Positions 24,844 through 40,970 are shown, counted from the first letter of the stretch. The stretch: DNA of 40,970 nucleotides from Alphaproteobacteria bacterium (GCA_035516655.1 DATJAC010000251.1:1-40970); one strand, 5' to 3'. A program made the numbers and translations. The notes: generated by a model from the letters alone, not told the origin.

Positions 24844-26012
24844 GGCCTCACCCCTCCGCGCGGGTGGCGGGCGAGCGCCTCGCTCACAATGGCAACGCTC
24901 GCCGCCGCTCCCGACAAGTCGAGCGCTGCAAATGACGCGGGTGGGCCCGCCTCGGCCCGATCGACGGCCGCGGCGAGACGCTCGGGCGAGAGCTCCGCCT
25001 CGGGGACGAGCTGCACGAGCCCGCGCGCCGCAAGCCGCTCGGCGCGCAGCGTCTGCTCCGTCTCGCCGCGCCCGACGTAAGGCACCAGCACGGCACGCGC
25101 ACCGGCACGCGCAATCTCCATCACCGTATTATAGCCGGCCTGGGAAATCGACATACGGCAATTGGCCAGGAGGGTCGGGAAATCCGCGCGCGCGCGCTCG
25201 ACGACGACGCCGCAGGGTGCCTGGGCCGCAAGGGCCGCGAGGGCCGCCCGGGGCAGATTGCGGCCGGCAAGGAGACGCCAGCCGCGGCGCGCGGCGCTGC
25301 TGCGCGGTCGTGCCGCGAGCGCGCTCGCGAGCAGGACGGCCCCTACCGCCCCGCCGCCGGCCGAGACCACGACCTCGTCCCAGCCCGGATCGCCCGGGCA
25401 GCCGCGGGGTAGCGGAGGTGGTGCAACGTATCCGGTGTAGCAGAGACGGGCGCCGAGCATCGCCGCGCACGGGAAGCTCTCCTCGAAGCGCACGAGCCGC
25501 GGGTCGCCGTGCACGAGGACGAGATCGAAGCTTTGCTCGACAAGGGCCGCTGCCTCCTCGGCCCGCCCGGGCTTGCGCCGGGCCTGCACGATGTCGCGCG
25601 TCGAGGAGACGACGAGGGGGCGGGGCGCGGCCGCGCGCGCCGCGGCGAGGAGAGGAAGCAGCTCGAAGCGCATCTGCCGGCGGCCGAAGGGGAACATCTC
25701 GAGCATGAGCACGTCCGGCCGGCGCTCGGCGAAGAAAGCGAGCAGGCGCTCGCGGCGCGCGCCGCACCATGCCGCGTCAGGCGGCTTGCCCATGTCGTCG
25801 ACGAGCTCGGTGAAGCTCTCGTCCTTGCTGCTGAGCGGCGGGAGCTGCACCAGGTGCGCCCCGCCAAGGTCGAGCTCGGCTACGGGCATTCCGCCGGAGA
25901 CGAGATCGACCTCCCAGCCCGCCGCGGCAAAAGCGCGGGCGAGGCGTGCGGCGCGCGCGAGATGGCCGATGCCGAGCAGGCTCTGGACGTAAAGCAGGAG
26001 ACGGCGGTTCAT
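24840..26012 (-). CDS. MurG/GT28-like glycosyltransferase (GT-B fold), paralog A
   Basis: MNRRLLLYVQSLLGIGHLARAARLA N-terminus. C-terminal CRMSISQAGYNTVMEIARAGARAVLVP resembles the nucleotide-sugar-binding helix of the GT28 C-terminal domain. It is a paralog of 29053-30273. Confidence 0.65.
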   Translation of the reverse strand: MNRRLLLYVQSLLGIGHLARAARLARAFAAAGWEVDLVSGGMPVAELDLGGAHLVQLPPLSSKDESFTELVDDMGKPPDAAWCGARRERLLAFFAERRPDVLMLEMFPFGRRQMRFELLPLLAAARAAAPRPLVVSSTRDIVQARRKPGRAEEAAALVEQSFDLVLVHGDPRLVRFEESFPCAAMLGARLCYTGYVAPPPLPRGCPGDPGWDEVVVSAGGGAVGAVLLASALAARPRSSAARRGWRLLAGRNLPRAALAALAAQAPCGVVVERARADFPTLLANCRMSISQAGYNTVMEIARAGARAVLVPYVGRGETEQTLRAERLAARGLVQLVPEAELSPERLAAAVDRAEAGPPASFAALDLSGAAASVAIVSEALARHPRGGVRP

Positions 26013-26599
26013 GGTCGTGCCAAGGCCAGATTGCCGCCGATGAGGTGCGGCCGGCCGGCAGCGTCGAGCTCGAAGAGCTGTGCGGTCGCGGCGGCGAGGC
26101 GAACGGGCGGGGTGCCGAGGAAGTCCCAACCGGTCGCCAGGCCGATGACGGCGCGGATGACGCCCTTGTGCGTGACGGCCGCGACGGGTCGCCCGCCGGC
26201 CCCGATGCGCGCGAGCCAGGGTGCCACGCGCTGCTGCACCTCGCGCGGGCTCTCCCCGCCCGGCGGACGGAAGTCCAAACCGCGCGCTTCGTTCGCGGCA
26301 AGCACCGGCCCGAGCTCGGCGCGCAGCTCGGCGAGACGCCGCCCCTCCCACTCGCCCCAAGCCATCTCGATGAGGACCGGCTCGACCCCTGCCTCGCGGC
26401 CGAGCATGAGGCGAGCGGTGTCGCGCGCGCGCCTGAGCGGGCTCGTGACCCAATCGAAATCCGCGAGTACCGCCGGCGGGCGCCAGGTCGCGGCCGCGGC
26501 AGCCCCGGCAGCACTCAGGGCGATATCCGCGCGGCCCTGGATGAGACCGCGCTCGTTCCACTCGCTTCTGCCATGGCGGATGAGGGCCAACTGGATCAT
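26009..26599 (-). CDS. Histidine phosphatase superfamily protein (phosphoglycerate-mutase-like)
   Basis: MIQLALIRHGRSEWN carries the catalytic RHG motif, and VTHKGVIRA supplies the second catalytic His. It is 196 aa. Both ends overlap GT genes by 4 nt. Confidence 0.85.
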   Translation of the reverse strand: MIQLALIRHGRSEWNERGLIQGRADIALSAAGAAAAATWRPPAVLADFDWVTSPLRRARDTARLMLGREAGVEPVLIEMAWGEWEGRRLAELRAELGPVLAANEARGLDFRPPGGESPREVQQRVAPWLARIGAGGRPVAAVTHKGVIRAVIGLATGWDFLGTPPVRLAAATAQLFELDAAGRPHLIGGNLALARP

Positions 26600-27735
26600 G
26601 GCCCCTGCCCCTTGCAGAGGGTGCCGAGAATGGCGTCAAGCCTTGCCGCGGCAGGGGCGATGTCGTGCTCCGCCAAGGCGATCGCGCGCGCGCGCGCGCC
26701 CATGGCGCGCCGGCGCTCGGGATCGTCGAGCAGGGCAGCCATGGCGGCCGCGAAGCCGCCGGCGTCGCCCGCGGCGGCGAGCAGGCCCGCCTCGCCCTCG
26801 CGCACGACCTCCGGCACGCCGCGCTCGCGTCCCGCGACGACGGGAAGCCCCGCCGCCTGAGCTTCGAGGAAGGCCATGCCGAAGGCCTCGTGAACGGCGG
26901 GCCAGACATAGAGGTCGGCACTGGCATAGAGGGCGGGCAGCTCTGTTGCCGCGAGCGTGCCGAGGTAGCGCACGCGCCCGGCACCGAGGGGTGCTAGGAG
27001 GGCCGCCACCTCGGCGCGCGCCGGGCCGTCGCCGACGACGACGAGTTGCCATTGGCGCTCGGCGATGCGGCTCAGCGCCTCGGCGAGCACGCGATAGGAG
27101 GCAAGCTTCGCCCCCGGCCGCATCATCGCCACCGTCAGCAGCCAGGGCCGCGCCGGCTCAAGCCCGTAAAGCCGCGCCAGCTCCGCACGCGCGGGCTTGG
27201 CGCGGGCATAGATCGCGGTCTCGATGAAGGGCGCCAAAGGGACGACGCGCGCCCGCTCGGCACCGGCCGCGAGCAGGCCCGCGCGATCGTCGCCGTTGAG
27301 ATTGATGAGGAGGTCGGCGCGCGCGATCGCGGCCGAGCTCGCGGCAAATCCCCGCGCCCAGCGTCCCTGTGCCTGCTTGCCGGCCAACGACGCCTCGACG
27401 ACGACGTAAGGAATGGCGAGCGCCCCCGCGACTGCGGGCCCAAGCCAGTCCGGCGCCTTGTGGTAGAGATGATAGGTGAGCCAAAGGGCTGGCCGGTGCG
27501 CCGGATCGCGCAAGTAGCGCTGCGTGAGGCGGGCGGCGAGTGCCGCACCCGAGCGCTCGATCCGCCGCTGCCGGGCGCTGTCCCCGGCCCCCTCCCAACT
27601 GCGCAAGCGCGAGGCCAGCACGACGTCATGGCCGACGCTCCTCAGGGCGGCGACGAGCGCGCGCCCGAGACGGCGGTCGCCCGAAGGCACCGGATGATCC
27701 GGCGGCTTCAGCGGCGCATAGAAGGCGATGCGCAT
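26596..27735 (-). CDS. Glycosyltransferase family 4
   Basis: MRIAFYAPLKPPDHPVPSGDR start. C-terminal WPAVHEAFGMAFLEAQAAGLPVVAGRERGVPEVV contains the E-x7-E motif. Confidence 0.8.
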   Translation of the reverse strand: MRIAFYAPLKPPDHPVPSGDRRLGRALVAALRSVGHDVVLASRLRSWEGAGDSARQRRIERSGAALAARLTQRYLRDPAHRPALWLTYHLYHKAPDWLGPAVAGALAIPYVVVEASLAGKQAQGRWARGFAASSAAIARADLLINLNGDDRAGLLAAGAERARVVPLAPFIETAIYARAKPARAELARLYGLEPARPWLLTVAMMRPGAKLASYRVLAEALSRIAERQWQLVVVGDGPARAEVAALLAPLGAGRVRYLGTLAATELPALYASADLYVWPAVHEAFGMAFLEAQAAGLPVVAGRERGVPEVVREGEAGLLAAAGDAGGFAAAMAALLDDPERRRAMGARARAIALAEHDIAPAAARLDAILGTLCKGQGP

Positions 27736-29048
27736 GACCGCGGCCGACCGGCGCCGGCTGCGAGGCTCGTCTCGACGCGCCCGATCGACGCCCCCCCGGG
27801 TGCCCCCGCCGCCGCGCGAGCGAATTTGGCGGCGAGCCGCGCAATGCCGGGTACGGAGCTGAAGCCTTGGCGCACGCGCTCGGCTCCGGCCTTGCCGAGG
27901 GCTTCGCGCAGAGCGGGCTCCCGGATGAGGCGCTCGAGGCTTGCGGCTACGGCCGGCACGTCGCCGGGGGCTACGAGCACTCCGGTCCGGCCCGCGTCGA
28001 CCAGCTCGGCAACCGCGCCCGCGGTCGTCGACAGACAGGCGAGCCCCTGACTCTGCGCCTCGAGCAGCACGTTGGGCAGGCCGTCCCGATCCCCGCCCGG
28101 CGCGATCCGGCAGGCGAGCGCGAAGAGATCGGCGCGACGGTACTGGGCGAGGACGGCGTCCTGGGCGAGCGGGCCGAGCCAGCTCACGCGCAGGGCGATC
28201 CCCGCGCGCTTCGCCTGACGCCGAAGCGCTGCCGCGAGCGGCCCGCCGCCCACATGCACGAAGCGCCAGTGGAGCTCCATGGGCAGCCGCGCCAAGGCGG
28301 CAAGCAGGGTATCGTAGCCTTTCTTGGCCACCAGCCGGCCGACCGAGAGGATGACGACCGGGGCCGCAGGGTCGCTGCCATCGCGCGGCGGCACGTCGGC
28401 CGCGGGCCGCGCCGCGGCCGGCGGGAAGCGCGCGAGATCGAGCCCGTGATAGACGAGCTCGACCTTGCTCGGCTCGGTGCTCAAAGCCGCGAGATGCTCG
28501 GCACCGCTCCGGGTACAGCTGACGAGCCACTCGAGGCTCGCGAGCTTGGCGCGCTTCTCCCAAGCGGGGATCGTCCAGATGTCCTTGGCGTGCGCCGAGC
28601 AGCTCCACGGCAGTCCCGTCAGCAGGCTGGCGTAGCGCGCGACCGAGGCCGGCGTGTGGAGGAAATGGGCGTGGAGATGCGCCACGCTCGCCGGCAGCTC
28701 GTGCGCCAGCACGAGCGCCTGGCCGAAGCGGCGCACGCGGTTGGGCGTGGGATCGCGCGCGAGATCGGCGAGCCAGGCGGCACGGGCGCGGCGATAGCCC
28801 GCCCGCCCCTTGAGCGCGCGCCAAGCGGCGAGCACGCGACGCGGCTCGTCGTGCAGGTATTCGGGAAGATAGAGCACGGGGGCAGCGATCTCGCGATGGA
28901 TGGGGTGGTGCTGGGCATCGCTCGGATGGCGCAGCGAGACGATGTGAAGGGCGAGGCCGCGGCTCTCGAGCCCTTTGAGCTCCTGCGCGATGAAGGTCTC
29001 GGAGAGACGCGGGTAACCCTTGAGGACGACAGCTATGGTGGGCCGCAC
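27708..29048 (-). CDS. Glycosyltransferase family 4, WcaL-like (YPRLSETFI type)
   Basis: VRPTIAVVLKGYPRLSETFIAQEL N-terminus. C-terminal GGDRDGLPNVLLEAQSQGLACLST is present. I prefer the GTG at 29048 over the TTG at 29090. The 3' end overlaps the next gene by 28 nt. Confidence 0.75.
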   Translation of the reverse strand: MRPTIAVVLKGYPRLSETFIAQELKGLESRGLALHIVSLRHPSDAQHHPIHREIAAPVLYLPEYLHDEPRRVLAAWRALKGRAGYRRARAAWLADLARDPTPNRVRRFGQALVLAHELPASVAHLHAHFLHTPASVARYASLLTGLPWSCSAHAKDIWTIPAWEKRAKLASLEWLVSCTRSGAEHLAALSTEPSKVELVYHGLDLARFPPAAARPAADVPPRDGSDPAAPVVILSVGRLVAKKGYDTLLAALARLPMELHWRFVHVGGGPLAAALRRQAKRAGIALRVSWLGPLAQDAVLAQYRRADLFALACRIAPGGDRDGLPNVLLEAQSQGLACLSTTAGAVAELVDAGRTGVLVAPGDVPAVAASLERLIREPALREALGKAGAERVRQGFSSVPGIARLAAKFARAAAGAPGGASIGRVETSLAAGAGRPRSCASPSMRR

Positions 29049-29052
29049 GGCG

Positions 29053-30273
29053 CTACGGATGGCCCGTGGCCACCGAAACCGGGTGCACAAGGCGCGGCCT
29101 GAGATGGCGCTCGACCAGGCGATTGACGTTGCCGAGGCCGTCGAGCAGGCCCGGGACGACCATGTCCGAGGGCCGCTTCTGCTGGGGCAGCTGACGCAGC
29201 GCCGTCGCCATCATGTGGGGATCGCGCGCGTAGCGATCGACGAGCATGGCGACGAGTCCGAGCGCTTGGGCGCGCGAGGCGCGGATATATTGCTCGAGAC
29301 GCGGCTCGGTGCGGGGCACGATGAGGGCCGGCTTGTCGAAGGAGAGGATCTCGCAGAAGGTGTTGTAGCCGCCCATGGCGACGACGCCGACCGCCCCTTG
29401 GATGAGCGTCTCCATGCGCGCGTCGAAGGTCATCATCTCGACGTTCTCGAGCCGGTCCGCGCGCGTCATGAACTCGGCCTGGCGCTCGGGCTGCATGAAG
29501 GGGCCCAGCACCATGAGGGCCGGATAGGGCATGGCGGGGTGCACCTCGTAGGCGCGCAGGACCCAATCGATGAGGGCCTCGCCGTCCCCGCCTCCGCCTG
29601 GCGTGACGAGCAGATAGGGCACCTCGAGGCGCGGGCGGGCGGGCATATGGGCGAGGTTCTCGGGCAGCTTGCGCTCGAGATAGCCGGTATAGACCGTGCG
29701 TCGCCGCACGGAATCGGGAAGCTCGATGCCCTCGAGCGGATCGCATACCTGCGGCAGGCCGTAGATCCAGATCTCCTCGTAGAAGTCGGCGAGGGCCGGG
29801 AGCACCTTCTTGCGCTCCCATTCCGGTGCGAGCAGGGCCGGCTCGTCCATCACGTCGCGCAGGCCGAGGACGAGGGGCACGCCGCGCGCTTTCAGCATGG
29901 AAAGCGTGTCCTCGATCTCGCCGCGCAGGCCGAGGGGCTCCTTGTCGACGAGGAAGAGGTCCGGATCGAAGGTATCGGCCGTGTAGCGGATGATCGACGA
30001 GCGCATGGCCAGCATCTCGCCGATGTCGATATGGAGGTTGAGCGAGGTATATTCGCCGTTGTGGAGCTTGATCACCCCGGGCACGCGCACGAAATCGACG
30101 CGCGCGCGGAAATCGAAGCTGCCGATGATCGGCGAGCCCGAGAGGATGAGCACCGACATGTCCTTGTGGTGCTCGACGAGCGAATGCGCGATGGCACGAC
30201 AGCGCCTCAAATGTCCGAGGCCGAAGGTGTCGTGGCTGTAGATGAGAACGCGCGTGCCCTTGCGGGTCGACAT
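29053..30273 (-). CDS. MurG/GT28-like glycosyltransferase (GT-B fold), paralog B; first gene of the operon
   Basis: MSTRKGTRVLIYSHDTFGLGHLRRCRAIAHSL N-terminus. C-terminal GVVAMGGYNTFCEILSFDKPALIVP is present. Its architecture is collinear with 24840-26012. Confidence 0.65.
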   Translation of the reverse strand: MSTRKGTRVLIYSHDTFGLGHLRRCRAIAHSLVEHHKDMSVLILSGSPIIGSFDFRARVDFVRVPGVIKLHNGEYTSLNLHIDIGEMLAMRSSIIRYTADTFDPDLFLVDKEPLGLRGEIEDTLSMLKARGVPLVLGLRDVMDEPALLAPEWERKKVLPALADFYEEIWIYGLPQVCDPLEGIELPDSVRRRTVYTGYLERKLPENLAHMPARPRLEVPYLLVTPGGGGDGEALIDWVLRAYEVHPAMPYPALMVLGPFMQPERQAEFMTRADRLENVEMMTFDARMETLIQGAVGVVAMGGYNTFCEILSFDKPALIVPRTEPRLEQYIRASRAQALGLVAMLVDRYARDPHMMATALRQLPQQKRPSDMVVPGLLDGLGNVNRLVERHLRPRLVHPVSVATGHP

Positions 30274-30469
30274 TGCGACCGCTCCCTTCGTGCCGGCTTC
30301 CCCATAGCCTATCGCGGCCCTCCCCGTCAAAGCCAGTCTTGTGACGGTTGGGCGGCCGTCGGGCCTGGTGTCGGGTGCCGGGGCGGCATTTACGCCCCGC
30401 CCGGCCTGGGCTAATCTCGGGGCCGCCGCAGGGCTTTTTTCGACGATCGGGGGCTCAGGTAAAAAGACC
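30274..30469. promoter_or_regulatory. Divergent intergenic control region between the GT operon and the ABC/cNMP operon
   Basis: 196 bp lie between two divergent first genes. The region contains a hairpin ggggcg-gcattta-cgcccc and a T6 run (about 30436-30441). I could read no recognisable sigma70 or CRP box. Confidence 0.35.
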
Positions 30470-33136
30470 GTGGAAAAGACTATTTATCGGTACGTCCTAA
30501 AGTACAGCCTCAAGGAGCAAATCGTCCTGCTCGTGGTCACGGGCATCTCGTTTCCGTTTCTCTACTACTCCTATGACCTGCCCAAGCTGATCGTCAATCA
30601 CATCAAGGACGCGGCCAATCAGGCCTACCGCGGCGGCGGGCTCGCAGCGGTGAAGGCGAACCACCTCTTCGGCATGAGTTTCGGCGCGGTGAGCTGGCTC
30701 ATGCTGCTCTCCCTGGTTTTTCTGGCGCTGACCGTCATCAACGGCGGCTTCAAGTACTTCATCAACGTCTTCAAGGGCCGCCTCGGCGAACGCATGCTGC
30801 GCCGGATGCGCTATCAGCTCTACAGCCGCATCCTGTGCTTCCCGCTCCCCCACTTCAAGAAGATCTCCGTGGGCGAGATCATTGCGATGGTGATCGCCGA
30901 GACCTCGACCTTGGGCGAATTCGTGGGCGACGCCGTGGCGACGCCGATCTTTCAAGGCGGGCTGCTGCTCGTACCCCTCATCTTCATCCTGGTGCAGAAT
31001 TTCTGGCTCGGGCTGGCGGCGGTGGCGCTTTATCCCGCCCAGGGCTATCTCATCCCGAAGATGCAGAAGCGCGTCAACGACTACAACAAGCGACGCATTC
31101 GCACGCAGCGCGGACTTTCCGAGCGCCTCGGCGAGGCGGTCGGCGGTGCCCTCGAGATTCGCGCCAACGACACCTCCCGCTTCGAGCGCGCCGATTTCTC
31201 CGACCGTCTGCACCTGCAATACCTGACCCGCCTCAGGATCTTCATCCTCAAATTCCTGGTCAAATACATCAACAACACCTGCGACAAGGTGACCCCGTTC
31301 TTCTTCTTCACGATCGGGGGCTACCTCGTGCTCAGGGGCCAGCTCGACATCGGAGCGCTCGTCGCCGTCATCGGTGCGCAGAAGGACCTGGCGTCGCCCT
31401 GGGGCGAGCTGCTCACCTTCTACCAAAGCAAGGACAACGCGCGGATCATGTACGAGCAGGTGGTCCAGCAGTTCGCCCCGCCCGGTGCGCTCGACGAAGC
31501 GATGCAGCTCGCCGAGCCCGAGAAGATCGAGCCGCTCAAGGGCGAGGTGCAGTTCGCCAACGTCGGCTTGAGCGAGGACGGCCGGCTCCGGCTCGTCGAC
31601 AACGTCTCGACGCGCTTTCCGCTCGAGAGCCACGTCGCCGTCGTCGGCGCGGGTGCGAGCGGGAAAGAGGAGCTCGGAATGCTGTTGGCGCGGCTCTTGG
31701 TGCCGAGCTCCGGCAAGATCACGATCGGAGAGCAGAATATCGCCGACTGGCCCGAGGCGGTCACCGGCCGGCGCATCGGCTTCGTCGCCCAGCACGCTTA
31801 CATGTTCTCGGGCAGCATCGGGGACAATCTGTTCTACTCGCTCAAGCACCAGCCGATCTCGCACAACCCCTCCTCGCCCGAGCGCGCGGCCGACATGATC
31901 GAAGCGGCGCGCACCGGCAATCTGCCGCTCGACATCAGGGCCGACTGGATCGACGCCCAAGCCGCGGGGGCGAGCACGCCGGCCGAGCTCAAGGAGCGCG
32001 CCCTCGCCATCCTCGGCATGACCGAGATGGAGGACGACGTCTACCGCGTCGGCCTCAGGAGCGTGATCGATCCGGCCAAGCGGCCCGAGCTCGCCAAGAG
32101 CGTCCTCGAGGCGCGCCACGCGCTCCGCGAGCGCTTGGCCGAGCCCGGCTTTGCCAGCCTCGTCGAGCTCTTCGACCGCGCGCGTTACAACGACAATGCG
32201 AGCGTGGGCGAGAATCTGCTGTTCGGCACGCCGACCGGCGGCGCTTTCGACATGGACCGGCTCGCCGAGAATCCCTATGTGCTCGAGGTCCTCGACAAGA
32301 CCGGCCTCACCGCAGACATCCTCGCCATGGGGCGCGAGGCGGCCTCGACCATGGTCGAGCTCTTCGCCGATCTGCCCCCGGGAAGCGAGCTCTTCGAGCA
32401 ATACTCCTTCATCAGCGCCGACGACCTGCCCGAGTTCCAGGCGCTCCTCACGCGGGTCGGCTCAAGCGGGCTCGACCAGCTCAACGACGACGACAAGAAG
32501 CGGCTCTTGAACCTGCCCTTCAAGCTCATCCCTGCGCGGCACCGGCTGGACCTCATCGACGAGCCCTTCAAGGCGCGCATCCTCGCGGCCCGCGGCGTCT
32601 TCGGCGAGGGCCTGCCGGCCCAGCTCAGGGGCGAGCTCGAGTTCTTCGACTTCGAGCGCTACAACGCCACCTCGACGCTGCAGGACAATGTGCTCTTCGG
32701 CAAAGTGGCCTACGGCCAGCCCCAGGGCGTGCAGCGCGTGGGGGCGCTCATCCAGGAGGTGCTCGAAACGCTCCACTTGAGGGGGGCGGTCATGGACGCC
32801 GGCCTCGGCTTCAACATCGGCAGCGCGGGCGGCCGTCTCTCGGGTACCCAGCGCCAGAAGCTCGCGATCGCGCGGGAGGTCTTGAAGCGGCCGGACCTCC
32901 TCATCCTCAACGACGCCTTGGCCGCCCTCGACAGCACGGCGCAGAGCAACGTGCTCGACAATCTGCGCGCGGAATTCAAGGGCCGCGGTCTGGTCGCCGT
33001 CCTCAACCGCGCGGCACTGGCGCGCAATTTCGACCGCGCACTCGTGATGCAGAGCGGCAAGCTGATCGAGCAGGGCGAGGTTGGCGAGCTCAACCGCGCC
33101 GGGTCGGTGTTCCACGGCTTGGTGCAGTCGGAATAG
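30470..33136 (+). CDS. ABC half-transporter (exporter-type TMD + NBD) with a non-canonical, expanded nucleotide-binding domain
   Basis: The N-terminal ~330 aa carry about 6 TM helices. The NBD has Walker A GAGASGKE (31646-31669), signature LSGTQ (32837-32851) and Walker B LLILND followed by Ala (32897-32917). About 290 aa are inserted between the Q-loop region and the signature. The GTG start at 30470 is tentative. Confidence 0.75.
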   Translation: MEKTIYRYVLKYSLKEQIVLLVVTGISFPFLYYSYDLPKLIVNHIKDAANQAYRGGGLAAVKANHLFGMSFGAVSWLMLLSLVFLALTVINGGFKYFINVFKGRLGERMLRRMRYQLYSRILCFPLPHFKKISVGEIIAMVIAETSTLGEFVGDAVATPIFQGGLLLVPLIFILVQNFWLGLAAVALYPAQGYLIPKMQKRVNDYNKRRIRTQRGLSERLGEAVGGALEIRANDTSRFERADFSDRLHLQYLTRLRIFILKFLVKYINNTCDKVTPFFFFTIGGYLVLRGQLDIGALVAVIGAQKDLASPWGELLTFYQSKDNARIMYEQVVQQFAPPGALDEAMQLAEPEKIEPLKGEVQFANVGLSEDGRLRLVDNVSTRFPLESHVAVVGAGASGKEELGMLLARLLVPSSGKITIGEQNIADWPEAVTGRRIGFVAQHAYMFSGSIGDNLFYSLKHQPISHNPSSPERAADMIEAARTGNLPLDIRADWIDAQAAGASTPAELKERALAILGMTEMEDDVYRVGLRSVIDPAKRPELAKSVLEARHALRERLAEPGFASLVELFDRARYNDNASVGENLLFGTPTGGAFDMDRLAENPYVLEVLDKTGLTADILAMGREAASTMVELFADLPPGSELFEQYSFISADDLPEFQALLTRVGSSGLDQLNDDDKKRLLNLPFKLIPARHRLDLIDEPFKARILAARGVFGEGLPAQLRGELEFFDFERYNATSTLQDNVLFGKVAYGQPQGVQRVGALIQEVLETLHLRGAVMDAGLGFNIGSAGGRLSGTQRQKLAIAREVLKRPDLLILNDALAALDSTAQSNVLDNLRAEFKGRGLVAVLNRAALARNFDRALVMQSGKLIEQGEVGELNRAGSVFHGLVQSE

Positions 33137-33154
33137 GGCGGGCTGGAGGTCAAG

Positions 33155-33613
33155 ATGAGTCTCAAGGAAGAAGTCGAGATCCTACGCAACATCCCGCTCT
33201 TCGGCAAGATCGAGCCCTCGAAGCTCAAGCTGCTCGCCTTCACCTCGGAGCGCCTCACCTATCATGCCGACCAAGTGCTCTTCCACCAGGGCGATCCGGG
33301 CGATGCCGCCTACATCATCCTCTCGGGTGCCGCCGAGGTGGCGATCGACGGGCCGACGGGACCGATCGTGGTCGCCGAGCTCGCGCGCAACTCGATCCTC
33401 GGCGAGATCGCGATCCTTTGCGACGTGCCGCGCACCGCGACCGTCAAGGCGAAGAGCGAGCTCGTGGTCCTGCGCATCTCGAAGGAGCTCTTCTTCAAGC
33501 TGATCACCGAGTTTCCCCAGATGGGGATCGAGATCATGCGCGTGCTCGCGGACCGCCTCGAGCGGACCACCCACCAGTTGCGCGAAGCGGTGAGTCACGC
33601 GGAGCATCATTGA
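33155..33613 (+). CDS. Stand-alone cyclic-nucleotide-binding (CAP effector) domain protein
   Basis: 152 aa with a ggagg RBS 8 nt upstream. IPLFGKIEPSKLKLLAF...GDPGDAAYIILSGAAEV...LGEIAILCDVPRTATVKA matches the cNMP-binding beta-roll and phosphate-binding cassette (GE..L....PR.A.V). Confidence 0.85.
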   Translation: MSLKEEVEILRNIPLFGKIEPSKLKLLAFTSERLTYHADQVLFHQGDPGDAAYIILSGAAEVAIDGPTGPIVVAELARNSILGEIAILCDVPRTATVKAKSELVVLRISKELFFKLITEFPQMGIEIMRVLADRLERTTHQLREAVSHAEHH

Positions 33614-34098
33614 GCCGGCTCGACAGCTTCATCCGGCGCCTCCTTGCCCAGCGTGCGGCGATCGACTATGCGGCCGGACTGATCGCCGGCCTCGAGGGTC
33701 CGGTCCTCGAGCTCGGCCTCGGCAACGGGCGCACCTTCGATCATCTCCGCGAGCGCCTCCCGGGCCGCGAGATCTTCGTCTTCGACCGCAAGCTCACCGC
33801 CCATCCGAGCTCGCAACCGGATGCCGCACACTTCATCCAAGGCGACTTCCGCGAGTCGTTACCGCGCGCCCTCGAGCGCCTCGGCGCCAAGGCGGCCCTC
33901 GCCCATTGCGACATCGGCTCCCACGACGCGGCTGCGAGCCAGGCGCTCGCGGCGGCTATCGCACCGCTGCTTGCTCCGCTCATGGTGCCGGGCGGAATCG
34001 TGCTCGGCGATCAGCCCATGGCGCAGCCGGGATGGCGGGAGCTCACCCTCCCCGAGGGTGTCGAGTCCGGGCGCTATTTCATCTATCGCGCCGGGTGA
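33610..34098 (+). CDS. Small class I SAM-dependent methyltransferase-fold protein (Methyltransf_24/TylF-like)
   Basis: VLELGLGNGRTFDHL resembles SAM motif I. An acidic residue ends the next strand (IFVFDRK), and CDIGSHD...LMVPGGIVL follows. The TTG start at 33610 overlaps the upstream TGA. The start and the family are both tentative. Confidence 0.45.
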   Translation: MSRLDSFIRRLLAQRAAIDYAAGLIAGLEGPVLELGLGNGRTFDHLRERLPGREIFVFDRKLTAHPSSQPDAAHFIQGDFRESLPRALERLGAKAALAHCDIGSHDAAASQALAAAIAPLLAPLMVPGGIVLGDQPMAQPGWRELTLPEGVESGRYFIYRAG

Positions 34099-34105
34099 GG
34101 GCCGC

Positions 34106-34897
34106 TCACACCGCGAGATCGACGATGGCGGGTGCGTGGTCGGAGGGCGTCTCCCAGCCGCGCGCCTCCTTGAGGACGGCGGCACCCGAGAGCCTGTCGC
34201 GCAAGGCCGGCGTCACCCAGATATGGTCGAGCCGCCGGCCGCGGTCGGCCGCACGCCAGTCCGAGGCACGGTAGCTCCACCAGCTGTAAAGCCTCTCCGC
34301 GGGCGGGATGAAATGGCGCACCGCATCGACGAAGCCGTGGGCGGCCTGGAGCTTGCCGAGCCACTCCACTTCGATCGGGGTGTGGCTCACCACGTCGAGG
34401 AGGGCCTTGTGGGACCACACGTCGGTCTCGAGCGGGGCGATGTTGAGATCGCCCACGAGGATCGCCTTGCGCCGCGGCTTCTGGCGCGCCTCCCACCAGG
34501 CGACGAGCTCGGCCAGGAAGCGCAGCTTGTGCGCGAACTTGGGATTGGCCTCGGCGTCGGGAATGTCGCCGCCCGCGGGGATATAGTAGTTGTGGAGCTC
34601 GATCCCGCCCGGAAGCGTCGCATAGGCGTGGCGGCAATCCTCCTTCTCGCACCAGCCCATCTGGCCGGCCTCTTTGAGCGGCACGCGGCTGAGGATGGCA
34701 ACGCCGTTGTAGGACTTCATGCCGTGGACGAGCTGGTGGCCGTAGCCGAGGCGTGCCAAGGGCTCGAGCGGGAAATGCATGTCCTGGACCTTGGTCTCCT
34801 GGAAGCAGAGCACGTCGGGGGCGCACTGGGCGATGAGCCGCTCGACGAGGCCGATGCGCAGGCGCACCGAGTTGACGTTCCACGTGACGATGCGCAT
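34106..34897 (-). CDS. xthA: Exodeoxyribonuclease III
   Basis: MRIVTWNVNSVRLR, LCFQETK, GDLNIAP and the C-terminal SDHAP are present. The 263-aa length fits. Confidence 0.92.
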   Translation of the reverse strand: MRIVTWNVNSVRLRIGLVERLIAQCAPDVLCFQETKVQDMHFPLEPLARLGYGHQLVHGMKSYNGVAILSRVPLKEAGQMGWCEKEDCRHAYATLPGGIELHNYYIPAGGDIPDAEANPKFAHKLRFLAELVAWWEARQKPRRKAILVGDLNIAPLETDVWSHKALLDVVSHTPIEVEWLGKLQAAHGFVDAVRHFIPPAERLYSWWSYRASDWRAADRGRRLDHIWVTPALRDRLSGAAVLKEARGWETPSDHAPAIVDLAV

Positions 34898-34912
34898 CGG
34901 ACCGCCGCCGGC

Positions 34913-35644
34913 TCAGGGCTGCTCGAGGGAGGGGAGGCTGAGGCCGAGCTCGACCGCGAGGGTCGTGACGCGGCGCAGGTAGTCCGCGCGCATCTCCTCG
35001 TTCGTGCGCTGCTTGATGCCCCATTTGCGGAAGATCGCGTTGTTCTTCGAGTCCGGCCGCCCGAAGAAGGCCGGCAAGGTCGGCAGGATGCGGTCGGTCG
35101 CGGCCTGAACCTTGCGCCGGCCTGAGGCAGTGGCGACGAGCTCGGTCGTGAAGTCCTTGCCGAATTGCGCGTGGAAACGCTCCTCCGGCATGGTCATGCG
35201 CGCGAGGTTGCGCAAGGGATGGAAGCTGCACTGGAGCAGATCCTCGACCTGGAGGATCTCCGCCAGGTCGCCGAAGAGCTTGAGCACGCAGAACTCCTCC
35301 CAGGTGCGGAGCGGAAAATCGAAGATGGTGAGCGGCCGCTTCTCGGGCCCGGGGACCAGCTTCGCGGCCGGGATGCCGATCTCCTCGCCGAGCTCGCGGA
35401 AGCGCACGTGATGGCCGTACTCCTCCATGGCGATCCGGCAGGTGAGCCATTTCGCGTGCGGATCGGGGGCGAGGGCTATGGCCGGCTCGTCGAAGACCTG
35501 GGCGCCATAGAGCTCGTTGACGGCGTGGCTCAGCACGATCTTGCGCACCGCCGTCTGGTATTCCTCCGGCTGCTGCATGAGCTCGCGCGCGGTATGGACC
35601 TCGATGCGTTGAGCCGTCATGACACGCTCATCGTCGGCAGCCAT
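34913..35644 (-). CDS. Ferritin-like di-iron oxygenase subunit (PaaA/PaaC-family-like)
   Basis: A four-helix ligand pattern is readable: NELYG, MEEYGHH (E-x-x-H), LAEILQVEDL and PEERFH (E-x-x-H). It lies 5 nt downstream of a ferredoxin-reductase gene. Confidence 0.6.
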   Translation of the reverse strand: MAADDERVMTAQRIEVHTARELMQQPEEYQTAVRKIVLSHAVNELYGAQVFDEPAIALAPDPHAKWLTCRIAMEEYGHHVRFRELGEEIGIPAAKLVPGPEKRPLTIFDFPLRTWEEFCVLKLFGDLAEILQVEDLLQCSFHPLRNLARMTMPEERFHAQFGKDFTTELVATASGRRKVQAATDRILPTLPAFFGRPDSKNNAIFRKWGIKQRTNEEMRADYLRRVTTLAVELGLSLPSLEQP

Positions 35645-35649
35645 GCTCC

Positions 35650-36678
35650 TCAGACACTCGCCGGCATTCCCGCCTTCTCCGCCTCAGTATAGAAGGCGTC
35701 GGCGTGGATGTCCTCGGCCGCCATGCCGCACGCGCCCAGCATCGCACTCGCCGCCTCGACCATGACCGGAGGTCCCGCGAGATAGGCCTTCCAACCCGCG
35801 AAGCTCGCGTGATCCGCGCGCACGGCATCGTGCACGAAGCCGGTGCGGCGTCTCGTCGCCCGCCGCGGCTCGCTCAAGACCGGGATGAAGCCGAGATTGG
35901 GATGGTGCCGGGCAAGGGCTGCGAAATGCTCCTCGAGATAGAGGTCGCGCTCGTCGCGCACGCCGAAATAAAGCCGGATCGGCTGTGCCACCCCGTGGCG
36001 CAGCGCGGTCTCGACGATCGATTTGATGGGAGCGAGGCCGGAGCCGCCGGCGATCGCGAGCACGGGGCCGATGTGAGTGGGGCGCCAATGGCTGGTGCCG
36101 AACGGGCCTTCGAGGGCCACCTCCTCGCCCAGGGTCAGATGCCGGGCCACGTAATGCGACGAGCGCCCGTCGGCCAAGGCCCGGATGTGAAACTCGAGGG
36201 TGGCCTCCGTCGGCCCATTGGCCATGGAATAGTCGCGCGCGGGTTGGCCGCGAAAGGCCACCCGGGCATATTGTCCGGCGGAAAAAACGAACGGCCCGCC
36301 GGCCAGCACCTCGAGGCGCACGCGCTTGATGTCGTGGGTGAGCTGATCGAGGGCCACGACACGGCAGTCGAGCCGGCGCCAGGGATGGATGGCGCTCTCG
36401 TCGCCCTCGAGCCAGGCGACCTCGACGTCGGAGCAGGGCAGCGCGCGGCAGGCGAGGATCAGCCCCGCGGCCTTCTCCCCCGCACTCAGCGCATAGCTCG
36501 AATAGGGCATCATCTCGACCGTGCCGCGGTGGAGGCGGGATTTGCAGGCGCCGCAATTGCCCGCCTGGCAGCCGTGAGGATAGGCCACCCCGGCCGCGAG
36601 AGCGGCCGCCAGGATGGTCTCGCCGGTCCCCACGGCGATGGTGCTGTCCTCTTGGCGAATGCGCAGAGTGAAGGTCAT
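35650..36678 (-). CDS. 2Fe-2S ferredoxin / FAD / NAD(P)H oxidoreductase (N-terminal ferredoxin type)
   Basis: Plant-type cluster motif C-x4-C-x2-C (CQAGNCGAC) plus a distal Cys (ILAC). FAD motif RDYS and NAD motif AGGSGLAPI are present. Confidence 0.85.
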   Translation of the reverse strand: MTFTLRIRQEDSTIAVGTGETILAAALAAGVAYPHGCQAGNCGACKSRLHRGTVEMMPYSSYALSAGEKAAGLILACRALPCSDVEVAWLEGDESAIHPWRRLDCRVVALDQLTHDIKRVRLEVLAGGPFVFSAGQYARVAFRGQPARDYSMANGPTEATLEFHIRALADGRSSHYVARHLTLGEEVALEGPFGTSHWRPTHIGPVLAIAGGSGLAPIKSIVETALRHGVAQPIRLYFGVRDERDLYLEEHFAALARHHPNLGFIPVLSEPRRATRRRTGFVHDAVRADHASFAGWKAYLAGPPVMVEAASAMLGACGMAAEDIHADAFYTEAEKAGMPASV

Positions 36679-36977
36679 GCGGCTCCCGGGCCGGGCAGCT
36701 TGCCGTCATTAGGCACGGCTGGCGGCAAGCTAGGCGCGGGTCGGCCGGAATTCAAGGCGGCAACGCCGCCGGGCTGCAGATAGGCGAACGCCCGGTCTAG
36801 GGGGGCATGACCGGGCGTTCTACGGCTCCAGAGGGAGCCCGAGGGCACCAGGGGAGTTGCCCTCGGGCGGCCAGGTGCCACCGCGGTGGCCCGCTGGCCG
36901 CTCGCTTATGAAATAGGCCGCGAATCGGCCGGTCGCCATGTCAACTCCGCCAAGCAGCCATGCGGTGAGCGCAGCGC

Positions 36978-38801
36978 TTAACTTTTCGCGAGTCCGGACT
37001 GCGAGAGCGCCTCGCGCGCCGGCCCCCTTGTCCGGGCCTGCTCATCGGCGACCACGTCGAAGGCCACGCAGATGCGGTCCTCGCTGCCCTCGAAGGGGAT
37101 CGTGTGGTGCCAGTAATAGGAGGGGAAGAGGACGATCATGCCCGGCTCGGGCCTGAGCGCCCTGGCCACCGGCCTGTCCGCGGCTTGCGCCGCGGGCGTG
37201 CCGGCGACCGGCGGACCGAACTTGATGAAGCCGGCCTCGCCGGTATTGCCCGCCGTCACGACGCCGGGAATCTGCACGTAATAAACCCCGCTCACGACGG
37301 CCTCGGGATGGAAATGCGGGATCTGGTAGCCACTCGCGCGCAACACGACCGCCCAGCCGTGGAGGCGCCAGGCTTGCGGGGCTCGCGGCGCCCAGGGGCT
37401 CGTACTTTGCGGCAGCGTCGCGAAATACTCGGCGACCGATTCCTCGATGAAGCGCTGCAAGGCCGCTACCGGCGCGTCGGCGCAATTGAGCAGCTCCATC
37501 GTCTGGCTGCCGTGCTGGGTCGCCCGCCCCGGCGGATCGCGCATGAGGGTCGGATGGCGGCAGATGTAGCGGGCGAGCTCGGCATTGAAGTCCGCGACCG
37601 TGGCCCAAGCCGGCACCCGCGCGAGCCGCCGCTGCTTGAGGAGATGCTCATGGTCGAGGAGTGTGAGCGCCTCCTCCCATTTGCCGAGCTGCTGCAGCGC
37701 GGTCGACCAATGCGCCTTGGCGGCGGTGAGGGTGGGCTCGAGCTCGAGAGCCTTGCGGAAAGCGGTCTCCGCCGCGGGAAAATCGCCCATCGCCTGGAAC
37801 GTTTGGGCGAGATTGACGTAGCTGACGGCATGGCCGGGTGCCAGCAGCAGGCCTTTGCGGATCTCCGCGAGGGCTGCATCGAACGCGCCCTCCTCGTAGA
37901 GAACGGCGCCGAGGTTGAGGTGGGGTTGGGCGAGGTTGGGGTCGAGCTCGACCGCGCGGGCGAAGCAGAGCTTCGCCTCGCCGCGCTTGTCCTGCTCCTG
38001 CAATGCGGCACCGAGGTTGAGGTAGAGCGAGGCGGAACGCGGATCAATGGCGAGCGCGGTGCGATAGGATTGAATGGCTTCGTCGAGCCGGCGCTGTGCC
38101 GCGAGCACGACGGCGAGATTGTAGTGCACCTCGACGGAGCGGACATCGAGGGCGACCGCCTGCCGCAGGACCGCGATCGCCTCGTCGAAATGCGACAACT
38201 CATGCAAGGTCACGCCGAGATTGACGTGAAAGCCGGCGATGCCGGCGTGTGCCGCGATCGCACGCCGGTAGGCGGCGGCGGCCTCGAGCAGCTTTCCCTC
38301 CCGGCGCAAGAGATTGCCGAGGCTGAAGTGCGCGGCGGCGAAATCCGGCCGGAGGGCGAGTGCCTGCCGGTAGGCGTCCGCGGCCTCGGCCAGCCGGTCG
38401 GCAGCGAAATAGGCATGGCCCAAATCGGTCAAATAGGCGGGATTGTCCGGCACCAGACGCTGTGCCGCCGCGAGGTGTGCTATCGCCTCGTCGCCGCGCC
38501 CGCTCTCGGCGCACAGGATGCCGAGACGGCGGCGCGGCTCGGCGGCCGTGGGCCAAGCCGCGATGATCTTGGCATAGAGCTCCTCGGCGGCCGGGAGCCG
38601 CCCGGCGCGGCGGTGCGCAGTCGCGAGCGCCATCAGCGATTTGAGATCGCCTGCCCCTGCCGGTTCTCCGCCGCGATGCGCACACTCGTCCAATGTTCGC
38701 AGCCGCCTGTCGACAACGCCCCGCGCGCGCCAGTGCAAGGCGCAAACAGCCGTCCACTTATAATGACGGAGGAAAGGGCATTTCCCTGCGCTCGCGCGCA
38801 T
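36978..38801 (-). CDS. TPR-repeat protein with a C-terminal 2OG-Fe(II)-oxygenase-like domain (PF13759/TIGR02466-like), paralog 1
   Basis: About 10 TPR units (A..Y..AL...P....A..NLG) precede HFHPEAVVSGVYYVQIP...GMIVLFPSYYWHHTIPF...RICVAFDV. The start is uncertain (ATG 38801, TTG 38855, or further downstream). Confidence 0.75.
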   Translation of the reverse strand: MRASAGKCPFLRHYKWTAVCALHWRARGVVDRRLRTLDECAHRGGEPAGAGDLKSLMALATAHRRAGRLPAAEELYAKIIAAWPTAAEPRRRLGILCAESGRGDEAIAHLAAAQRLVPDNPAYLTDLGHAYFAADRLAEAADAYRQALALRPDFAAAHFSLGNLLRREGKLLEAAAAYRRAIAAHAGIAGFHVNLGVTLHELSHFDEAIAVLRQAVALDVRSVEVHYNLAVVLAAQRRLDEAIQSYRTALAIDPRSASLYLNLGAALQEQDKRGEAKLCFARAVELDPNLAQPHLNLGAVLYEEGAFDAALAEIRKGLLLAPGHAVSYVNLAQTFQAMGDFPAAETAFRKALELEPTLTAAKAHWSTALQQLGKWEEALTLLDHEHLLKQRRLARVPAWATVADFNAELARYICRHPTLMRDPPGRATQHGSQTMELLNCADAPVAALQRFIEESVAEYFATLPQSTSPWAPRAPQAWRLHGWAVVLRASGYQIPHFHPEAVVSGVYYVQIPGVVTAGNTGEAGFIKFGPPVAGTPAAQAADRPVARALRPEPGMIVLFPSYYWHHTIPFEGSEDRICVAFDVVADEQARTRGPAREALSQSGLAKS

Positions 38802-38935
38802 GCTCAAACGGTTGAGCAGACCTTCCCAATGCGCGGGGCTTCGCCGGCGCCGCAACTTTGCTCGGCACCGGAACCCGCGCGCCCAAGCTTATGCGGCGAG
38901 AGCGATCTCGGCGCCGGAGCGGGGCGCCGTGCGTG

Positions 38936-40636
38936 TCAATGCGGCGTGCCGCCTCTCGCAGCCGGAGGGTCGCTGATGACGTCGAAGGCCACGCAGATGC
39001 GGTCCTCTTGGCTCTCGAACGGCATCGTGTAGTGCCAATAATAGGAGGGAAAGAGGACGACCATTCCCTCCTCGGGCCGCAGCGCCCTGGTGAGCGGGGT
39101 GTCCTCCGCGCTGGCGTCGGCCGTCCCTGCGAGCGGAGGGCCGAACTTGATGAAGCCGGCCTCGCCCGCCTGTCCCGAGCGCACGACCGCGGGGATTTGC
39201 ACGTAATAGACCCCGCTCACCATCGCCGGAGGGTGGAAGTGCGGCGTCTGATAGCCGCTCGCGCGCAAGACCACCGCCCAGCCGTTCAGGTGCCAAGCCT
39301 CGAGTGGAGGTGGTGCCAAGGAGTTGGCGCTGGTCCGAAGTGCCGTCGCGAGATAGTCGGCGACACTCGCCTCGATGAAGCGCTGGAGGGCCGCGACGGG
39401 CGCGTCCGCGGAATTGAGGATTTCCAGGCTCTGCTGGCCTCCCTTGGTGGCCAACCCCGGGGGATCGCGCATGAGCGTCGGGTGGCGATAGATGTAGCGC
39501 GCGAGCTCGGCGTTGAATGCGGCAAGCGTCGGCCAAGGCGGCATCTCCTCGAGCCGACGCGTCGCGAGCAGATGGGCATAGTCGAGGAGGGCCAGCGCCT
39601 CGTCCCATCGCCCCATCTGCCTGAGGGCGATCGACCACTGGGCTTTCGCGGTGGTGAGGCCGGGCTCGAGTGCCAAGGCCTTGCGGAAGGCCGCCTCGGC
39701 ACCCGCGAGATCGCCCGAGGCCTGCAAGGTCTGGCCGAGGTTGACGTGGGTGAGCGCCTTGTCGGGTGCCAGCTCCAAGGCGCGCCGGATGGCGACGAGC
39801 GCCGGCTCCAAGTCGCCTTTGCCGTAAAGTGCCGCACCGAGGTTGACGTGCGCCTGGGCGAGATCGGGAGCGAGCTCGGCCGCGCGCGCGAAGCAGGCGA
39901 TCGCCTCGTCGAGCCTGCCCGTCTCCTCGAGGGCCACGCCCAGATTGAGATGCGCCGCCGCCGCCTCGGGCTGGACGGCGAGGGCGGCGCCGTACGACCG
40001 GATCGCCTCGTCGAGCTTTTGCTGCCCCGCCAGGACGAACGCCAGATTGTAGTGCGCTTCGTAAGAGTGCGCATCGAGGGCGACGGCTTGGCGCAACTCT
40101 GCGATGGCCTCCTCGAACAGCTTCAAGCGTTGCAAGGTCACGCCGAGGTTGATGTGGAAGGCGACGACGCGGGGATCGGCGGCGACGGCGCGCCGATAGG
40201 CGGCGACGGCTTCGCGGAGCTTGCCTTGAGCGCGCAGGAGATTGCCGAGGTTGAAATAGCCGTCGCCCGAATCCGGACGCAGCGCTATGGCACGGCGGTA
40301 GGCCTCCTCGGCAGCGTCAAGGCGCTGTGCCGCCAGATAGGCATGGCCGAGATCGTTGAGATAGACGGGATTGTCGGGAGCCAGGCGCTGCGCTTCCGCG
40401 ATGAGTCCGATTGCGGCATCGAGGCGCCCGTCGCGGGCATAGAGAATGCCGAGCCGGCGGCGCGGCTCGGCCGCCGCCGGCCAAGCCGCGATGATCCGCT
40501 TGTAGACTTCGGCCGCGGCGTCAAGGCGCCCGGCGCGCTGGTGATCGCGCGCCAGCGCCATGAGCGCCCGGGCATCGCTCGCGGCACGCGGCTGCTCCGT
40601 CGTCCCCTTGCCGCCTGCGCGCGTTCCGGCGTTCAT
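38936..40636 (-). CDS. TPR-repeat + 2OG-Fe(II)-oxygenase-like protein, paralog 2
   Basis: 566 aa, collinear with paralog 1. The same C-terminal motifs are present: HFHPPAMVSGVYYVQIP, LFPSYYWHYTMPF and RICVAFDV. Confidence 0.8.
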   Translation of the reverse strand: MNAGTRAGGKGTTEQPRAASDARALMALARDHQRAGRLDAAAEVYKRIIAAWPAAAEPRRRLGILYARDGRLDAAIGLIAEAQRLAPDNPVYLNDLGHAYLAAQRLDAAEEAYRRAIALRPDSGDGYFNLGNLLRAQGKLREAVAAYRRAVAADPRVVAFHINLGVTLQRLKLFEEAIAELRQAVALDAHSYEAHYNLAFVLAGQQKLDEAIRSYGAALAVQPEAAAAHLNLGVALEETGRLDEAIACFARAAELAPDLAQAHVNLGAALYGKGDLEPALVAIRRALELAPDKALTHVNLGQTLQASGDLAGAEAAFRKALALEPGLTTAKAQWSIALRQMGRWDEALALLDYAHLLATRRLEEMPPWPTLAAFNAELARYIYRHPTLMRDPPGLATKGGQQSLEILNSADAPVAALQRFIEASVADYLATALRTSANSLAPPPLEAWHLNGWAVVLRASGYQTPHFHPPAMVSGVYYVQIPAVVRSGQAGEAGFIKFGPPLAGTADASAEDTPLTRALRPEEGMVVLFPSYYWHYTMPFESQEDRICVAFDVISDPPAARGGTPH

Positions 40637-40673
40637 CGCGGCTTTCGACCGGTACGTGCGACTGTCGCGCGTT

Positions 40674-40970
40674 TCAACGCGGCGTGCCGCGCCGTGCGGC
40701 CGGCGCGTCGCTGATGACGTCGAAGGCCACGCAGATGCGGTCCTCCCGGCTTTCGAACGGCACCGTGTAGTGCCAGAAGTAGGCCGGAAAGAGGACGACC
40801 ATGCCTTCCTCGGGCCGCACCCCGTTGGTGAGCGGCGTATCCTCCGCTTTTGTCACGGTCACGGGATCGATCGGCGGGCCGAACTTGATGAAGCCGGCCT
40901 CCCCCGCCTCGCCCGAGCGCACCACCTTGGGGATCTGCACGTAATAGACGCCGCTGACCGTTGCGGCGGC
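40674..40970 (-). CDS. TPR + 2OG-Fe(II)-oxygenase-like protein, paralog 3 (3' fragment; the gene runs off the window)
   Basis: The C-terminal oxygenase motifs YYVQIPKVVRSGEAGEAGFIKFGPP...LFPAYFWHYTVPF..RICVAFDVISD are present. The reading frame stays open to the window edge. Confidence 0.75.
   Translation of the reverse strand, partial: AAATVSGVYYVQIPKVVRSGEAGEAGFIKFGPPIDPVTVTKAEDTPLTNGVRPEEGMVVLFPAYFWHYTVPFESREDRICVAFDVISDAPAARRGTPR

Follow-up and report, generated by a model that had tools for sequence, protein, structure and literature searches.

Three genes that stand one behind the other, with 3' ends described as near-identical, raise the question of how they came to be alike in this region and what their products do. 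They lie at one end of a stretch of 40,970 nucleotides (nt) of DNA from an Alphaproteobacteria bacterium (GCA_035516655.1, DATJAC010000251.1:1-40970), which was analysed over its whole length and is referred to here as the window. The locus, at positions 36978-40970, is a tandem array of three paralogous genes of an uncultured, high-GC soil bacterium that is probably alphaproteobacterial. Its proteins combine tetratricopeptide repeats (TPRs) with a C-terminal domain of the PF13759 family (2OG-FeII_Oxy_5), named after oxygenases that depend on iron and on 2-oxoglutarate (2OG). The initial annotation, made from the sequence alone, attributed the array to recent duplication or to ongoing gene conversion focused on the catalytic domain. 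The account that we favour, and hold to be rather likely as a whole, is that the array arose by two duplications and changed in size by unequal recombination, that the identity at the 3' ends stems from constraint, and that the proteins are hydroxylases guided by their TPRs.

Layout of the array and architecture of its proteins

Open reading frame (ORF) analysis and Pfam place all three PF13759 genes on the minus strand in the same direction, bearing out the tandem arrangement that had been described. Their PF13759 matches (copy 1, E 1e-22 and 80.7 bits; copy 2, E 2e-22 and 80.1 bits; copy 3, E 1e-15 and 58.3 bits) all pass the gathering cut-off of 27 bits, which confirms the C-terminal oxygenase-fold domain by hidden Markov model (HMM). 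Copy 3 (40674-40970) is the first gene in transcription order, and only its last 98 codons and stop are present, as the contig ends within the gene. Copy 2 (38936-40636) encodes 566 amino acids (aa), and the array closes with copy 1 (36978-38693), whose TTG start gives a protein of 571 aa; both match Pfam TPR families in addition to PF13759. The TTG start is the one used in the gene call on an independent contig (L007) and in orthologs. The C-terminal tail of copy 1 is longer than in the other copies and ends in ...GPAREALSQSGLAKS. Spacers of about 40-130 bp had been reported; the first of these, between copies 3 and 2, is indeed short (37 nt), but the second, between copies 2 and 1, measures 242 nt, and shrinks to 80 nt only if the longest possible ORF is taken for copy 1.

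The proteins, of about 565-570 aa, are cytoplasmic; in them ten TPRs resembling those of O-GlcNAc transferase (OGT) lead, through an alpha/beta linker, to a double-stranded beta-helix domain at the C-terminus. In copy 2 these parts are encoded at 39554-40573 (repeats 1-10), 39281-39553 (linker) and 38972-39280 (double-stranded beta-helix core), all on the minus strand. An AlphaFold2 (AF2) model of copy 2, with a predicted local distance difference test score (pLDDT) of 91, contains 20 paired helices, corresponding to the ten TPRs, followed by the linker and a beta-barrel; modelled alone, the C-terminal domain reaches a pLDDT of 91.8. The ten 34-residue repeats are in register and follow the pattern W4-L7-G8-Y11-A20-F24-A27-P32, with Asn at repeat position 6 in most of them, and the E values for TPR_1 and TPR_2 are 1e-47 to 1e-54. 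When the PDB was searched with a family profile, TPR matches dominated, and the TPR part is 33-34% identical to the TPR domain of OGT (1w3b, 6eou), with a target-normalised TM-score of 0.73-0.86. The assertion that each gene carries about ten TPR units and an HFHP motif thus applies to copies 1 and 2, while the TPR part and the HFH motif of copy 3 fall outside the window; the sole Pfam match of its 98-residue fragment is PF13759.

The copy 2 TPR part also matches many proteins of 750-980 aa, at 36-45% identity, in which a like TPR array is joined to an O-GlcNAc transferase-like GT41 (PF13844) or a sulfotransferase (PF00685, PF13469) domain in place of the oxygenase. At the level of sequence, this suggests that one client-binding scaffold is common to several modifying enzymes.

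Catalytic core and proposed function

The fold of the C-terminal domain is the double-stranded beta-helix of the Fe(II)/2-oxoglutarate oxygenase superfamily, as judged from Foldseek matches to prolyl hydroxylases and to 2rg4/3bvc at E 1e-9 to 1e-7. The structures 3bvc and 2rg4 come first, followed by the Pseudomonas EF-Tu prolyl hydroxylase, PHD2 and a viral collagen prolyl hydroxylase; the prolyl hydroxylase matches have E of about 1e-8 and query-normalised TM-scores of 0.56-0.65. Within this fold, the residues proposed to bind the metal in copy 2 are H466 and H468 of the H-F-H motif (codons at 39233-39241) and the distal His535 (39032-39034), with Arg546 (38999-39001) further along, all on the minus strand. 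None of 48 homologs departs from H466 and H468, and at least 90% of them retain H535, R546 and D552. In the model, H466 and H468 stand at the end of the strand 448-466, H535 on the strand 535-537 and R546 at the start of the strand 546-555. These positions in the predicted structure fit the places where the ligands of this fold usually stand: where a long strand ends, on a short strand that comes late, and where the last strand begins; the proposed ligand roles are based on this strand position and on motif order.

The metal site itself departs from the canonical one. Instead of HxD/E...H, the family has HxH...H...R, and in copy 2 H466-x-H468...H535 stands where the usual triad would be. In 48/48 close homologs and 135/138 representatives, and also in a standalone member of the PF13759 family, the residue at the acidic place is His. 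Judged by motif order, two His and the Arg would thus have been retained, while the carboxylate is absent, so that the metal ligands are conserved only in part. An acidic ligand is not needed in every case: PMC13168262 describes AspH as a 2OG-dependent protein hydroxylase that works without one and uses two His.

Human AspH is also similar in architecture, with TPRs at its N-terminus and a 2OG-oxygenase barrel behind them, and the whole copy 2 model aligns with it over about 470 columns that take in both domains. According to PMC6817910, the TPR and oxygenase domains of AspH act jointly on protein substrates. On the other hand, AspH belongs to the PF05118 family, shares 13-14% identity with the array proteins, has fewer TPRs and is anchored in the endoplasmic reticulum membrane, facing the lumen; its third ligand position is taken by water, and that of the array proteins would be taken by His. 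PF05118 does not appear in the Pfam listings of copies 1 and 2, of which that of copy 2 gives the best 25 of 26 families. The resemblance to AspH is one of architecture and fold only.

The best fold matches, 2RG4 from Oceanicola granulosus and 3BVC from Roseovarius nubinhibens, are members of PF13759 deposited as 'uncharacterized protein'. Both chains align with the same H-x-H...H...R-I-S/C motif, and the C-terminal 100 or so residues of the array proteins match the PF13759 model at 80 bits; however, 2RG4 and 3BVC are standalone proteins of about 200 aa without TPRs and share only 20-23% identity with the array proteins. The closest characterised folds are the prolyl 4-hydroxylases, that is Pseudomonas PPHD, which acts on EF-Tu, human PHD2 and viral collagen P4H (E about 1e-8, TM-score 0.56-0.60). 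The motif order and spacing of the array domain are like those of H313, D315, H374 and R383 of PHD2. In contrast to the array proteins, these enzymes have HxD rather than HxH and no TPR domain, and at 9-16% identity there is no significant sequence alignment. The peptide-binding domain of collagen P4H, put forward earlier as a comparison for the TPR part, is a separate, short TPR-like module. Enzymes whose modifying activity is guided by TPRs offer a further parallel: OGT, SPINDLY and Caulobacter FlmG. The array TPRs are most like the OGT superhelix (33-34% identity). Their catalytic domain is a glycosyltransferase, whereas that of the array proteins has an oxygenase fold. For FlmG, PMC7591256 attributes substrate specificity to the N-terminal domain.

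From fold, motif conservation and the analogy with AspH, prolyl hydroxylases, OGT and FlmG, we infer that the proteins most likely act as Fe(II)/2OG-dependent protein hydroxylases that are guided by their TPRs and have a three-His site. In such an enzyme the TPR superhelix would bind a polypeptide client, the oxygenase domain would bind iron via His466, His468 and His535 and 2-oxoglutarate via Arg546, and a residue of the client would be hydroxylated in the manner of AspH and the prolyl hydroxylases. The paralogs would probably serve different clients, as they differ mainly at TPR positions that line the groove.

We think it unlikely, though deserving of serious attention, that the oxygenase acts instead on a small molecule or another non-protein substrate and that the TPRs only assemble a complex, possibly one in which the neighbouring ferredoxin-type reductase, in place of 2OG, feeds electrons to a three-His iron site. 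The change from acidic ligand to His runs across the whole family, a reductase gene adjoins the array in the window and in the related contigs L010 and L023, and standalone PF13759 proteins without TPRs exist, all of which is consistent with such a role. However, the reductase has been kept in contig L025, where there is no TPR gene; no reductase stands beside the homologs in L008, L012, L017 and L021; and in the window a 299-nt spacer with a conserved element of its own parts the reductase from copy 1. Moreover, at least 90% of homologs keep Arg546, which would stand in the place of the 2OG-binding Arg, the characterised folds nearest to the domain belong to protein prolyl hydroxylases, and changes fixed between paralog clades fall on groove-lining TPR positions, all of which speaks against this reading.

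Shared 3' ends, duplication and copy-number change

The three copies share an exact 29-nt core (38979-39007, 37054-37082 and 40717-40745; minus-strand sequence GAGGACCGCATCTGCGTGGCCTTCGACGT), which spells EDRICVAFD in preferred GC-rich codons. In copies 2 and 3 it extends into an exact run of 39 nt (38969-39007 = 40707-40745). These runs, and the two strings around the stop codons, had been reported correctly. Beyond them the likeness had been put too high: the 100 nt or so past the 39-nt run are 83% identical rather than about 88%, and copies 2 and 3 agree at 241/297 positions (81%) over their entire shared length of 297 nt, and at 81.0% over the visible barrel. 'Near-identical' therefore overstates oxygenase-domain identities of 79% (copies 1 and 2) and 81% (copies 2 and 3) in nt, and of 72% and 77%, respectively, in aa. 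Between copies 1 and 2, the TPR part is 70.4% identical in nt, with a synonymous divergence (dS) of 0.85, as against 79.3% and a dS of 0.64 in the barrel. The TPR parts are thus the more diverged in this pair, as had been claimed, but not between copy 2 and the ortholog of copy 3 in the related contig L013, where the TPR part is 87.5% and the oxygenase part 83.7% identical.

The exact runs of 39 and 29 nt and the gap between 79.3% and 70.4% in copies 1 and 2 might indicate that ongoing gene conversion, or very recent duplication, holds the 3' ends alike while the TPR parts drift, and a relative indeed shows recombination at the core. We give this idea very little chance, since the same gradient is found where conversion is impossible. 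As controls we used pairs of genes from separate genomes, which cannot convert one another. The ratio of oxygenase to TPR nt identity is 1.13 for copies 1 and 2, and 1.09-1.17 in five such cross-genome pairs, among them those with TPR/oxygenase identities of 70.5/80.7 for copy 1 and L010, 73.0/82.3 for L008 and L010, 62.1/72.7 for copy 2 and L012, and 69.1/77.3 for copy 2 and L010. The core, too, is kept across genomes, with only 2-3 mismatches in the homologs of L008 and L010, and other exact runs of 29-33 nt are found between cross-genome pairs. The exact runs thus do not exceed what constraint in the family would produce.

In a GENECONV-style permutation of polymorphic sites, neither the 39-nt run of copies 2 and 3 (P = 0.105) nor the C-terminal part of copies 1 and 2 (P = 0.52) was significant, whereas cross-genome controls had P values as small or smaller and reached P = 0.002-0.01; the test therefore detects rate variation and not conversion. 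Nor are paralogs more alike than orthologs. In trees the paralogs of the window do not cluster together: copy 1 falls in a separate clade together with its orthologs P0009, which is 98-100% identical to it, P0013 and P0018 (bootstrap 100 and 84), and copy 3 groups with P0003 (bootstrap 100), to which it is 94% identical in nt, as against 81% to copy 2. Copies 1 and 3 are thus closer to their orthologs than to their neighbours. Even in the oxygenase part the dS of copies 1 and 2 is 0.64, and copies 2 and 3, judged from the L013 ortholog, are more alike in the TPR part. The ratio of non-synonymous to synonymous substitution rates (dN/dS) lies at 0.2-0.45 in all parts, and all copies are therefore under purifying selection. 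Conversion focused on the catalytic domain is accordingly not borne out, and the higher 3' identity and the 29-nt core instead reflect purifying selection on the EDRICVAFD motif together with strong GC-rich codon usage. A conflict between the TPR and C-terminal trees (copy 2, P0003 and P0002) hints at exchange in the TPR part; with support of 82-87%, neighbour-joining trees and pairwise identities that are nearly tied, we do not claim it.

We compared four sequences of the copy-1 clade with seven of the copy-2/3 clade, counting positions fixed within each and different between them. The TPR part has 19 such differences and the linker 3, while the 100-residue barrel has none (Fisher P = 0.01), in keeping with the earlier view that the TPR scaffolds diversified while the catalytic core stayed constant. 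In complexes of TPRs with peptides, the helix-A positions 12-13 line the concave groove. These repeat positions hold 6 of the 19 TPR differences (binomial P = 6e-4), most of which change charge. On the sequence evidence, this supports divergence of the TPR parts for different clients, with the catalytic core held constant. The same pattern bears on whether the domain is catalytic at all. That it is a non-catalytic relic, and the proteins plain TPR scaffolds, could be argued from the missing canonical HxD/E...H triad and from the lack of a family member with known activity, but we consider this highly improbable: H466 and H468 do not vary among homologs, at least 90% of which keep H535 and R546; no part of the protein is more conserved than the barrel, where 53% of positions are the same throughout the two clades and none differs in a fixed way; and dN/dS is 0.24-0.41.

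Tandem duplication as the origin of the array stands, but recency does not, because copies 1 and 2 parted long ago, at a dS of about 0.85, and both clades have orthologs of their own. In an older duplication, copy 1 would have split from the ancestor of copies 2 and 3, which would themselves have split in a younger one, and unequal homologous recombination between copies would have changed the size of the array in relatives. We compared the interval between a Peptidase_C26 gene and the reductase gene in related contigs. It contains no copy in L025, where a 13-nt remnant of a copy-1-type tail remains; one copy in L010, which is on a 749-kb contig; one in L016, the chimeric gene P0004; two in L015 (P0002, then a copy-1 ortholog); at least two in L014 and L023; and three in L013 plus the window. 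Before the core, P0004 shares 85% identity with copy 2 and 70% with copy 1, with informative sites divided 330:95 between copy 2 and copy 1, while after the core it is 84% identical to the copy 1 tail and downstream flank, with sites divided 8:57. The maximum chi-square breakpoint lies at the first base of the 29-nt core. P0005, on an independent contig, likewise has a copy-2-like body and a copy-1-type tail. Taken together, 0-3 copies between the same flanks and a chimera junction at the shared core point to unequal crossing-over, although on short metagenomic contigs this is not proof. The L016 gene would thus be the trace that an unequal crossing-over left at this core, and the reverse of that event is possible. 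Recombination between copies is therefore seen in the form of copy-number change and of a chimera at the 29-nt core, and not as conversion.

The array itself is well supported. ENA has a protein identical to copy 2, P0001. Contig L007 in ENA agrees with the window at 28936-40970 (99.78% identity) and terminates at the same base inside copy 3; the JGI contig L026 agrees at 36720-40702 (99.75%) and begins inside copy 3. Three independent assemblies thus concur over copy 2, the spacer and copy 1 at 99.75-99.78%, and all break within copy 3, a breakage of short-read assembly that is probably due to the paralogous repeats. The start of L026 (window position 40702) is 5 nt before the 39-nt repeat, and the two other assemblies end at 40970. 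Contig L013, about 90% identical in nt to the window where they overlap, continues beyond this point: it has a Peptidase_C26 gene, then P0003 (568 aa; 94% nt and 96% aa identity to the visible part of copy 3), then the start of the copy-2 ortholog after the same 37-nt spacer. From this layout, the array of the window would have three copies and begin after a Peptidase_C26 gene. That the array is an assembly artefact, in which strain variants of one gene were set end to end, can be discounted for practical purposes, for although one contig stops and another (L026) begins inside copy 3, three independent assemblies match, the copies differ by 19-30% and have distinct spacers and tails, and junctions between adjacent copies are seen independently in L013, L015, L014 and L023.

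Several points weigh against our account of duplication, unequal recombination, constraint and TPR-guided hydroxylation. Copy 3 is incomplete, and the count of three copies and the upstream boundary are taken from L013, with its nt identity of about 90%; L016, L015 and L013 are short metagenomic contigs, so that assembly chimeras keep a small probability. The acidic iron ligand has been replaced by His, so that the use of 2OG is an assumption. A comparison by hhalign of the C-terminal profile with PHD2 was not significant, and no residue-level alignment to a solved 2OG oxygenase was obtained. TIGR02466, suggested alongside PF13759 as a check on the domain, scores 52.3 and 54.5 bits, below its curated cut-off of 62.5, and matches only at model positions 98-198 of 201; by that rule the proteins are relatives of the TIGR02466 family rather than members of it. 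No member of PF13759 has a known activity, and the literature consulted gives no function for PF13759, TIGR02466, 2RG4 or 3BVC, in agreement with the initial annotation, which had called the family functionally uncharacterised; we found no characterised member. Finally, no client gene is conserved beside the array genes or their homologs in the loci compared.

Neighbourhood and spread of the family

The reductase gene that follows the array (35650-36678, minus strand) is of the BenC/MmoC type, with Fer2, FAD and NAD(P) domains in Pfam and NCBIfam, and is not part of the array; it adjoins the array locus in L010, L023 and L025 as well. A gene for a PaaA/PaaC-like di-iron protein of 243 aa, likewise outside the array (34913-35644, minus strand; PF05138, E 5e-25), lies 5 nt past it and 15 nt ahead of an exonuclease III gene. 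L010 and L023, although syntenic in other respects, lack this gene, which is therefore either a lineage-specific insertion or has been lost in other lineages. The 'oxygenase-rich neighbourhood' that this pair had suggested is thus not conserved, and distant homologs (L008, L012, L017 and L021) sit in unrelated contexts. As the reductase persists without a TPR gene in L025, and contexts vary, no functional link between the two is seen.

The 299-nt spacer between the array and the reductase (36679-36977, minus strand) holds a conserved hairpin element at 36786-36900, with parts P1 (36868-36900), P2 (36837-36868) and P4 (36786-36820) on the same strand. Four to five related contigs share a block of about 90 nt in identical or almost identical form, while their flanking genes are only 70-80% identical; the element recurs in L010 (about 11.75-11.87 kb), L023 (about 2.35-2.47 kb), L025 and L016. 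It contains two perfect hairpins with C-rich loops (AACUCCCCUGGU and AUGCCCCCCUA), and in a preceding hairpin sequence and length vary while pairing is retained, with G-C swapped for A-U. The fold has a z-score of -4.4, and an Rfam scan of 33000-40970 at E <= 1 returned nothing but a chance snoRNA match. The element adjoins the reductase also in L025, with no TPR gene at the locus, and thus belongs with the reductase and not with the array; it may be a small RNA or may form the leader of the reductase mRNA. A 39-aa ORF in this spacer (36820-36939, minus strand), called on the ENA contig, was rejected as coding on account of a frameshift and mostly non-synonymous changes relative to L016. ORFs of 68 aa near distant homologs (L021 and L022) were considered as client peptides and dropped, there being nothing similar near the genes of the window.

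Further along the window, glycosyltransferase genes (GT1/GT4 and GT28 C-terminal types) and genes for a long ABC transporter, a cNMP-binding protein and a Methyltransf_17 protein (24840-30330 on the minus strand, 30341-34098 on the plus strand) are in the same order as in L010. A distant homolog with 37% identity, P0069, directly follows a gene for a standalone PF13759 protein of 214 aa (L017-L020, about 4060-13700). That locus also has genes for DUF3305, DUF3306, a TorD-like chaperone, a molybdopterin oxidoreductase, a 4Fe-4S subunit and a cytochrome b, in the same layout on four contigs from different samples.

A search with the C-terminal domain among 1.84 billion proteins returned 4735 representative clusters at E <= 1e-3. 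Among the best 145 of these, 126 are at least 340 aa long, and 123 of the 126 carry 1-10 upstream TPR units, as counted with a repeat HMM built from the family of the window. The TPR-PF13759 fusion is thus common, although its members are annotated only as 'tetratricopeptide repeat protein', and our locus is a further member of a known but uncharacterised family. Its array, duplication history and short exact repeats are those of ordinary gene-family evolution.

More tentatively, and with the odds rather against it, TPR-PF13759 proteins may constitute a large, unrecognised class of bacterial cytoplasmic protein hydroxylases that have a three-His iron site, choose their clients through OGT-like TPRs, and gain new specificities as tandem arrays expand, contract and swap modules by recombination at the conserved core. 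Natural pairs of paralogs whose fixed differences are limited to TPR and linker and enriched at TPR positions facing the groove are a good starting point for finding clients. Protein hydroxylation in bacteria is known from few enzymes and, if catalytic, a family of thousands that joins an OGT-like client-binding domain to an oxygenase barrel would widen the field.

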